DNA of 62,262 nucleotides from Bacillota bacterium (GTDB taxonomy: Bacteria; Bacillota; Clostridia; Christensenellales; UMGS416): positions 1 through 62,262 of the forward strand of contig JAEYRA010000148.1 in assembly GCA_023409755.1 (NCBI GenBank), written 5' to 3'. This document shows positions 47,769-48,215 of this stretch, piece after piece; within the stretch, counting starts at the first letter, position 1; each line of letters opens with the position of its first letter. The translations under genes were made by a program, and so were the position numbers. Under the pieces are notes generated by a model, which searched no databases, had not been told where the DNA came from, and saw only the letters and a list, made by a program, of their open reading frames with translations.

Positions 47769-47831
47769 ATACCATCGCGCATCATTGAGCCATACTGCAT
47801 CCTACGCCGCCTTGGGGCGGCGTTCATAGTG

Positions 47832-48147
47832 TCTATAAACCTCTAGTACGGGCAACGGGAGATGAACCCCCCGCCGATTCATTCGGCGGGAGGAAAGACA
47901 GGGTCAGCGCGAGCAGGAGAAAAATTCGCCTGAAGGCGCAACGCATACTTAGAAATCGCATGAGAGCTGCAATTAGTGATCGGTCAATCGCATTGCTGTG
48001 CAATGCTCGCGTTGCTCTCAACGATTCTAGCGAATCGTCTACCGCAACGCGGGACTGAGAGTCGGCGACATGTGCGGCGACCGATCTGGCCATAACGAGA
48101 ACAAGCTGTTTGAATCGCGGCTGTCGCCACAGCGGCAGACGCGAAAG
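47832..48147 (+). repeat. Copy 5 of the multi-hairpin intergenic element family, with an ~85-90 nt structured expansion
   Basis: It has all family motifs plus an extra segment at about 47970-48058 made of nested hairpins: GCATTGC-TGT-GCAATGC, and GCGTTGC...GCAACGC enclosing ACGATTC-TAGC-GAATCGT. HP4 is at 48116-48143. Confidence 0.85.
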
Positions 48148-48172
48148 GTTTGTCGACTCTGTCGACAGCCTG

Positions 48173-48197
48173 AACGCCGCCTTTGGGCGGCGTTTTC
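48173..48197 (+). terminator. Intrinsic terminator (functional copy of the duplicated smpB-proximal hairpin)
   Basis: AACGCCGCC-TTT-GGGCGGCGTT + TTCG. A near-identical hairpin without a U-tract lies at 47804-47824. Confidence 0.7.
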
Positions 48198-48215
48198 GTT
48201 GCCGTCAGCTTTCCC

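Follow-up and report, generated by a model that had tools for sequence, protein, structure and literature searches.

A folded non-coding repeat between two copies of the smpB terminator hairpin is probably a miniature transposon with IS1182-type ends

Introduction

The insertion sequences ISCbo5 (an ISBma2-like element of Clostridium) and IS1272 and TnSha1 (of staphylococci) target terminator hairpins (PMC3098183, PMC4923244, PMC5678879). IS1272 and TnSha1 select DNA secondary structures, mostly intrinsic terminators, in both orientations and without a primary-sequence consensus (PMC4923244, PMC5678879). [quoted passage not shown] 13, pathway b). Elements of the ISCbo5/ISBma2 type, which occur in C. 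botulinum group III, C. novyi-NT and C. sporogenes, are 1.6 kb in length and code for a transposase that has DUF772 and DDE_Tnp_1_6 domains. Small folded repeats are a second point of comparison: BOX (pneumococcal), ERIC (enterobacterial) and SPRITE are non-coding, mostly intergenic and co-transcribed with the genes next to them, and contain variable modules (PMC10969869, PMC3049150). Neither duplication of a whole target hairpin nor ends of the IS1182 type are reported for any of these repeats. ERIC occurs in size variants. A formal analogy, and only that, is found in the duplication of CRISPR repeats by Cas1-Cas2, in which opposite strands of a palindromic sequence of 20 to 40 nt are cut at its two borders, and a copy of this sequence comes to flank the inserted DNA on each side.

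In this study, we analyzed a family of elements with six copies in a stretch of 62,262 nucleotides (the window, meaning the whole stretch of DNA analyzed) from a high-GC uncultured Bacillota lineage, a host unlike those of the ISCbo5-type elements. This family resembles the ISCbo5/ISBma2 type in its terminal sequences (CAGGCTGTTGATAAAC and, as the reverse complement, CAGATTGTTCAAAAAG in the latter), in having a terminal palindrome next to one end, in inserting at the terminator hairpins of gene ends and in having the hairpin duplicated on both flanks (29 nt in the ISCbo5 type), with a T-tract only at the distal copy. In contrast to that type, the window family is small (270 to 846 nt) and without an ORF, and its interior has no detectable homology to ISCbo5-type elements but consists of conserved, covarying hairpins and optional modules. 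It differs from IS1272 and TnSha1 in duplicating the whole stem-loop, as in pathway b. With BOX, ERIC and SPRITE it shares small size, folding, intergenic position, variable modules and co-transcription, but it has in addition the hairpin duplications and IS1182-type ends that are not reported for them. The enzyme and termini differ from those of Cas1-Cas2 systems, there is no array, and there is no sign of membership in such a system.

Results and discussion

Two copies of the smpB terminator hairpin flank a complete element

The features of the region downstream of smpB are as follows (strand in parentheses).

47295 to 47768 (+): ORF of smpB, the upstream gene, whose terminator is the presumed insertion target
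47804 to 47824: proximal hairpin copy, ACGCCGCC-TTGG-GGCGGCGT, without a T-tract and abutting the first base of the element
47825 to 48173 (+): complete element copy (copy 5), 349 nt, non-coding, with both termini (nhmmer E=1.4e-63 with the family profile)
47825 to 47841 (+): 5' terminus CATAGTGTCTATAAACC (family consensus (T)CAGAGTGTCTACAAACC), corresponding to the right end of IS1182-type elements
47867 to 47892 (+): hairpin HP1, CCCCCGCCGA-TTCAT-TCGGCGGGAGG, of which the 3' strand CGGCGGGAGG is nearly invariant
47927 to 47938 (+): small conserved hairpin CGCC-TGAA-GGCG, 92% paired, without covariation
47978 to 48086 (+): hairpin HP3, with outer stem GATCG...CGATC and inner stem GTCG/CGAC; a module interrupts its 5' strand
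47983 to 48060 (+): optional 78-nt module containing hairpins A, B and C
47990 to 48006: module hairpin A, GCATTGC-TGT-GCAATGC
48009 to 48015 with 48044 to 48050: module hairpin B, GCGTTGC with GCAACGC, enclosing hairpin C
48021 to 48038: module hairpin C, ACGATTC-TAGC-GAATCGT
48115 to 48144 (+): conserved 3' hairpin TCGCG-GCTGTCGC-CACA-GCGGCAG-A-CGCGA, with a conserved U.G pair
48147 to 48173 (+): terminal palindrome GGTTTGTCGAC-TCT-GTCGACAGCC followed by TGA, slightly decayed in copy 5
48174 to 48200: distal hairpin copy with a T-rich tail, the hairpin proper being 48174 to 48194

The identity of smpB was indicated by homologs with Pfam PF01668 (SmpB), some of which are named SsrA-binding protein in their sources. 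Of the window copies, copy 5 alone was complete; its fold z-score was -6.6. The flanking hairpins read ACGCCGCCTTGGGGCGGCGTT at 47804 to 47824, which is 1 nt from the element end, and ACGCCGCCTTTGGGCGGCGTT at 48174 to 48194. Blastn and a comparison of the flanks both found 20 identical positions out of 21, in agreement with a prior sequence-only reading of this DNA that had described a direct repeat of about 21 nt, including terminator sequence, on either side of copy 5. That reading had also placed a U-tract at the distal hairpin only; T-rich sequence was indeed confined to this position, with TTTTCGTT in the window and TTTTTTT in a sister strain of 99% identity. The distal hairpin and its T-rich tail form a functional-looking intrinsic terminator for smpB and the element. 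A simple promoter/terminator scanner missed this terminator, which we think was due to extension of the stem into the T-tract. A promoter-like pair (TTGCGC and TAAAAT, 17 nt apart), unreported by the simple promoter scan, is situated just beyond the distal hairpin in the window (48216 to 48244) and is conserved upstream of the gene for a PLP-dependent (TrpB-like) enzyme both there and in a syntenic relative (L052:4478-4560).

The element belongs to a family of about 50 copies at gene ends

The five other copies detected in the window were as follows.

7867 to 8124 (+): copy downstream of cbiM, truncated at the 3' end and directly followed by a ribosome-binding site and ATG
27941 to 28151 (+): divergent sixth copy (E=6e-7), in which HP1, HP3 and the 3' hairpin are kept through compensatory changes
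43044 to 43301 (-): copy between the stop codon of a GH38 gene and the terminator of that gene
45323 to 45570 (+): copy 4, without the terminal palindrome and with a partial hairpin duplication
49718 to 49974 (+): copy 6, whose 5' terminus follows the terminator of the PLP-enzyme gene; truncated at the 3' end and without a duplication

The partial duplication at copy 4 (45298 to 45318 compared to 45571 to 45591) matched at 20 of 21 positions, as the earlier reading had reported, and no direct repeat was detected around the copy at 43044 to 43301. The first of these copies (7867 to 8140) follows a cbiM-PDGLE gene, precedes GAAGGAGG and an ATG (8137) and is apparently located inside a cobalt-transport operon; it would be transcribed within a polycistronic mRNA. 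Next to copy 6, an ORF of 333 amino acids on the minus strand (49948 to 50949) directly adjoins the truncated 3' end; it has a cysteine-rich C-terminal part and no match in Pfam.

The conserved 3' hairpin was sought as an exact pattern in 185,579 species-representative genomes, which gave 34 loci; 32 of these came from a single MAG of a related uncultured Bacillota, "Bacillota bacterium OH_SBrB_79" (JAEWRW01); the other two matches look like chance. The window DNA does not overlap the loci of this MAG. A profile search of these 32 loci (8 kb each) and the window yielded approximately 50 family copies of 205 to 846 nt. There were no matches to two core patterns in viral contigs and none by blastn between the longest copy and plasmids and phages, while a loose 3'-hairpin pattern gave five matches in JGI metagenomes, all due to chance and located within high-GC coding sequence.

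The first bases of a complete copy are (T)CAGAGTGTCTACAAACC, and the last are GGCTGTCGAC-TTT-GTCGACAGCC-TGA. The termini constitute an imperfect inverted repeat, in which the 5' end TCAGAGTGTCTACAAAC and the reverse complement of the 3' end TCAGGCTGTCGACAAAG match at 13 of 17 positions (consensus, CAGRNTGTCNACAAA). Locus-specific direct repeats of 20 to 33 nt, 91 to 100% identical and 0 to 3 nt from both ends, flanked 12 of the 17 complete copies, and each of these 12 repeats was a whole terminator hairpin, foot to foot. Partial repeats were present at four further complete copies, and one was a head-to-tail tandem. As the best ungapped repeat score among 367 mismatched flank pairs had a 95th percentile of 9, the flanking repeats are not due to chance. 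The proposal that a locus-specific terminator repeat recurs at different copies held for other members of the family, including the longest copy of 846 nt (L018), whose flanking repeat matched at 28 of 29 positions. Where the two repeat copies differed, the upstream one tended to have a broken stem, and the T-tract followed the downstream one.

The copies were located at gene 3' ends according to crude gene calls, 23 of 50 being between convergent genes and 3 of 50 between divergent genes. Both orientations relative to neighboring genes were common; 31 copies, comprising all those with a callable upstream gene, were in the sense orientation after that gene. The terminal palindrome was missing from about half of the copies. 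Its deletion was bounded by microhomology (GAAA in copy 4 and AGGC in the copy at L016), as expected if slippage had occurred across a perfect palindrome. Many copies were end-truncated fossils. No pair of copies exceeded 91% identity, and the family therefore looks old and is possibly extinct. Two elements at L017:6014-6660 (-) are arranged head to tail, 3' end directly against 5' end with no intervening hairpin, and two loci (L019 and L023) have three copies each within a few kilobases.

The termini resemble those of IS1182-family insertion sequences

The ends of the element were compared to those of ISCbo5, a complete copy of which (1,614 bp) is present on p3BKT015925 (NC_015418.1) at L060:35706-37319. 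The ORF of this copy encodes a transposase in which DUF772 and DDE_Tnp_1_6 domains were recognized. The insertion sequence has the ends CAGGCTGTTGATAAAC... and ...GAACAATCTGA, of which the left is followed by its own inverted copy, and it is flanked by a 29-nt direct repeat (35677 to 35705 and 37320 to 37348) consisting of most of a terminator hairpin. The C. sporogenes pRSJ11_1 copy, annotated as an IS1182 family transposase, has a 29-nt repeat of a whole hairpin, between an A-tract and a T-tract. The 3' end of the window element (reverse complement, CAGGCTGTCGACAAAG, as read from the palindrome end of copy 5) shared 13 of 16 positions with the left end of ISCbo5. In subfamily 2, the 5' end (CAGATTGTCAAAAAG) agreed with the right end of ISCbo5 (reverse complement, CAGATTGTTCAAAAAG) apart from one indel. 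A terminal palindrome made up of an end and its own inverted copy is common to the insertion sequence and the window element. This likeness extends over only about 16 nt per end, and the known insertion sequences come from distant, low-GC hosts. Another candidate end, GGTTCTGTTGCAAAGT, was rejected as an IS1182 end since it is the end of IS6/IS257. The ISCbo5 stretch (L060:35677-37348) has no listed gene in the table of the plasmid collection.

No transposase was found by Pfam analysis of 30 ORFs in the window, and there was no multi-copy ORF among 782 six-frame ORFs of the MAG loci (approximately 260 kb) and the window. Similarly, tblastn with the ISCbo5 transposase gave no match in the 435 kb of DNA examined, and a search via orphan termini found no autonomous partner. 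The element copies themselves contain only short overlapping ORFs without conservation. The termini and the flanking repeats indicated that the element at 47825 to 48173 is probably a miniature transposon of the non-autonomous kind (MITE), bounded by the ends of an IS1182-family DDE insertion sequence, although the missing transposase counts against this reading. The two smpB hairpins can be regarded as a target-site duplication, i.e., an insertion scar, because the element agrees with the IS1182 family in its termini, its terminal palindrome, the kind of target chosen and the way in which that target is duplicated. Read in this manner, the locus-specific terminator repeats are explained as scars, which avoids the annotation of at least six repeats in 62 kb as RNA genes or doubled terminators. 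The 12 element copies and two insertion-sequence copies would also be natural examples of the duplication of a whole stem-loop target, an outcome proposed in PMC5678879.

Insertion at smpB may have proceeded as follows. An IS1182-type transposase acting in trans would have recognized the imperfect terminal inverted repeats. With the smpB terminator hairpin extruded as a cruciform, each 3' end of the element would have been joined to one of the two terminator strands, at the 5' foot of the hairpin. Repair of the gaps would then have copied the whole hairpin, giving the order hairpin, element, hairpin. The T-tract of the proximal hairpin was lost to the first bases of the element, while the distal hairpin keeps its T-tract. 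Since only the distal hairpin has this tract, the smpB transcript should end there; it would read through the proximal hairpin and cross the element before stopping. Such an insertion would be nearly harmless, with the element co-transcribed as a long folded 3' untranslated region (UTR). MITE insertions of this kind would preserve termination and add 270 to 850 nt of folded 3' UTR to many genes, thus providing a natural test bed for 3'-UTR effects.

Related genomes lack the element at the smpB site or carry the insertion

In a syntenic relative (L052; SmpB identity, 84%), the genes for GHMP kinase, DegV, DUF1836, SmpB and PLP enzyme follow one another as in the window, and none of the three sites that correspond to copies 4, 5 and 6 contains the element, the spacers being 12 and 125 nt in length compared to 396 and 538 nt in the window. 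This relative also lacks a hairpin at these positions and hence does not provide an exact empty site. Exact look-ups with SmpB, DegV and the PLP enzyme found no contig of the same species with an exact empty site (the same flanks and one hairpin), all of these contigs carrying the insertion, and a search of metagenomes for the exact empty-site junction pattern gave 0 matches. A comparison of the regions downstream of smpB in related strains, as suggested by the sequence-only reading, thus provided a relative without the element, but not a site with the hairpin in its original state. A relative with 86% SmpB identity and without the element has, after smpB (L038:2682-2705), the sequence AAAGGCTGTCACCAGCCTCC, which resembles the palindrome region AAAGGCTGTCGAC...GACAGCCTGA; this could be a footprint or a coincidence.

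The sister strain enabled an estimate of the decay of copy 5. Seven substitutions and two indels were present in approximately 390 nt of the element region, compared to six substitutions in 731 nt of flanking coding sequence. One of the indels was an 11-nt deletion in the sister strain (L036:930 compared to 47970 to 47980 of the window) that removes a small hairpin just before HP3. The T-tract after the distal terminator was longer in the sister strain than in the window, and each strain had its own mutation in the terminal palindrome. This comparison suggests that copy 5 is decaying at an approximately neutral rate, about like silent sites.

Copy 5 carries an optional module that recurs in other copies

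The sequence-only reading had described an expansion of about 85 to 90 nt at approximately 47970 to 48058, between an ATGAG motif and HP3. The three hairpins drawn within this segment were found where they had been placed, but both its extent and its position required correction. By alignment, the module is 75 to 78 nt in length (approximately 47983 to 48060) and splits the 5' strand of HP3 itself, the order being GATCG, module, GTCG, the conserved 13-nt loop GCGACATGTGCGG (48065 to 48077) and then CGACCGATC. A GTC trinucleotide at both edges (47983 to 47985 and 48061 to 48063) renders the boundaries ambiguous.

At least seven other copies have the module at the same site in HP3 (L003, L010, L018, L020, L023 and L031, with a partial module in L026), and at least 12 copies have it at a second site, HP1; some elements have both. 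In 17 homologous instances, the three module helices were 97% paired and 10 of 22 pairs were changed on both sides, with an invariant inner hairpin (ACGATTC-NNNN-GAATCGT) and invariant junction bases. In longer copies, additional modules are nested at HP3, downstream of it and within the 3' hairpin. Nearly all instances were inside detected family elements, which rules against the module having come from some unrelated repeat. Three instances (one in L001 and two in L012) were flagged as lying outside, but to judge by the sequence around them they appear to sit in divergent or long copies missed by the profile merge. The segment is thus a structured, recurrent and optional domain, as had been proposed.

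The description of this domain as an expansion relative to copy 6 is, however, probably backwards. Module-bearing copies were polyphyletic on the core tree: the module-bearing copy at L023:5661 shared 93% identity with a copy lacking the module, and copy 5 shared 90% with the module-less copy at L013. As module-bearing copies are scattered among module-less nearest relatives and the module is also present in a divergent subfamily, recurrent loss from a longer ancestor is more economical, and seems likelier, than repeated site-specific gain. The ancestor was probably longer (the longest copy has 846 nt) and contained the module. Repeated losses would then have occurred through slippage between short direct repeats on either side of hairpin-forming DNA, the palindrome having been lost likewise in about half of the copies.

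The conserved core and alternative explanations

The four core helices were examined in 40 short copies, whose median identity was 70%. Pairing amounted to 91.9%, both partners had changed in 15 pairs, and none of 500 shuffles attained these values. HP3 was 97.7% paired over the 40 copies, both sides being changed in 7 of 11 pairs, and the U.G pair of the 3' hairpin was conserved in 36 of 40 copies. Sporadic mismatches included 22 G.U and 27 A.C and were without asymmetry. A DDE-type MITE needs only its ends. The 200-nt internal core therefore exhibits more conservation than such an element requires, and this is unexplained by the MITE model. Core conservation does not, however, establish an RNA function, because G.U and A.C mismatches were equally common and because copy 5 differs from the sister strain by an indel that removes a hairpin. 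The covariation does not establish an RNA function either, because templated quasipalindrome correction can create compensatory changes in DNA inverted repeats and because much of the core variation may reflect subfamilies that diverged before insertion.

Known RNA classes were examined as candidates. There was no match to Rfam 15 in the 62-kb window at the gathering score, and only chance-level matches were found at E<=10 for copies 4 to 6 and the 846-nt copy. A tmRNA downstream of smpB was rejected as ARAGORN detected no tRNA or tmRNA in the window. For a class C group II intron, a terminator-targeting retroelement that inserts after the terminator and does not duplicate it, there was no match to an intron model and duplications were present. 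The 3' hairpin, as read from the sequence, has a 1x1 internal loop and a CACA loop and thus a geometry other than that of group II domain V. A guide RNA of the HEARO or IS605-orfB type had no Rfam model match and did not fit with the duplications.

The strong covariation of HP3 and the 3' hairpin, the conserved loops across divergent subfamilies, the conserved U.G pair, fold z-scores of -5 to -10 and the 31 copies in the sense orientation after a gene, which would be co-transcribed, could be taken to indicate that the element is primarily a functional structured RNA (a 3'-UTR stabilizer or small-RNA source) that is selected at each locus, with mobility being incidental or long extinct; the "expansion" would then be a true variable domain of that RNA. 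We consider this improbable. No Rfam match was obtained even at the permissive threshold, both orientations relative to neighboring genes were common, many copies were truncated, and the mismatches exhibited no strand asymmetry. Furthermore, copy 5 and its sister-strain ortholog have diverged about like silent sites, with the hairpin deletion and a mutated palindrome in each strain, and correction of quasipalindromes in DNA could also yield the compensatory changes. Of the earlier proposal of an RNA family with an expansion domain, the variable structured domain was retained, but an RNA gene was not supported, the units having transposon ends and target-site duplications. A weaker form of the functional reading is that the core and the 78-nt module provide an RNA or single-stranded DNA structure for the transposition machinery or the host, which would make this the first described IS1182-type MITE family; this is possible but rather unlikely. 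If true, a structured nucleic acid would have been spread as the passenger of a terminator-duplicating transposon, placing a folded 3' UTR on dozens of genes with termination unbroken.

Two other routes of mobility were also weighed. Duplication of a 20- to 33-nt palindrome from foot to foot is formally like the duplication of a CRISPR repeat by Cas1-Cas2, and no IS1182 transposase was found in the window, the MAG loci or the other DNA examined, which leaves room for another class of enzyme making staggered cuts around a palindrome, such as a Cas1-type (casposase-like) integrase, with convergent similarity to IS1182 ends. Such an origin is very unlikely, as both termini match IS1182-family ends, the architecture of the terminal palindrome is common to both, two real IS1182-family elements have the same hairpin duplication, and no cas1-like or other integrase gene was seen in the window. 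Still less credible is an RNA-mediated (SINE-like) retroelement, in which a folded RNA and a reverse transcriptase would insert at terminators by target-primed reverse transcription. That process naturally gives duplications of variable length, as found here, and would fit with structure and covariation over the whole element and with placement where transcription is expected; against it are inverted repeats at the termini that resemble those of DDE insertion sequences, the absence from the window of a reverse transcriptase, the lack of a 3' tail or template-switch signature, the absence of group II intron or retron matches in Rfam and the insertion in both orientations relative to terminators. 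A MITE with IS1182-type ends thus remained the preferred reading, and such an element is ordinary selfish DNA with an unusually elaborate folded core. The unexplained conservation of this core is the only part that could become something larger.

Other features of the window

A T-box leader was detected at 2072 to 2277 (+), upstream of the prolyl-tRNA synthetase gene (2299 to 3762), with a score of 56 bits (E=1.5e-10). This score is below the Rfam gathering score of 93, and hence the leader was missed by the default scan. Several direct repeats of 60 to 75% identity (D1 to D4 and D8), unrelated to the element, are present at 29490 to 36830 and look like paralogous gene pairs on the minus strand.
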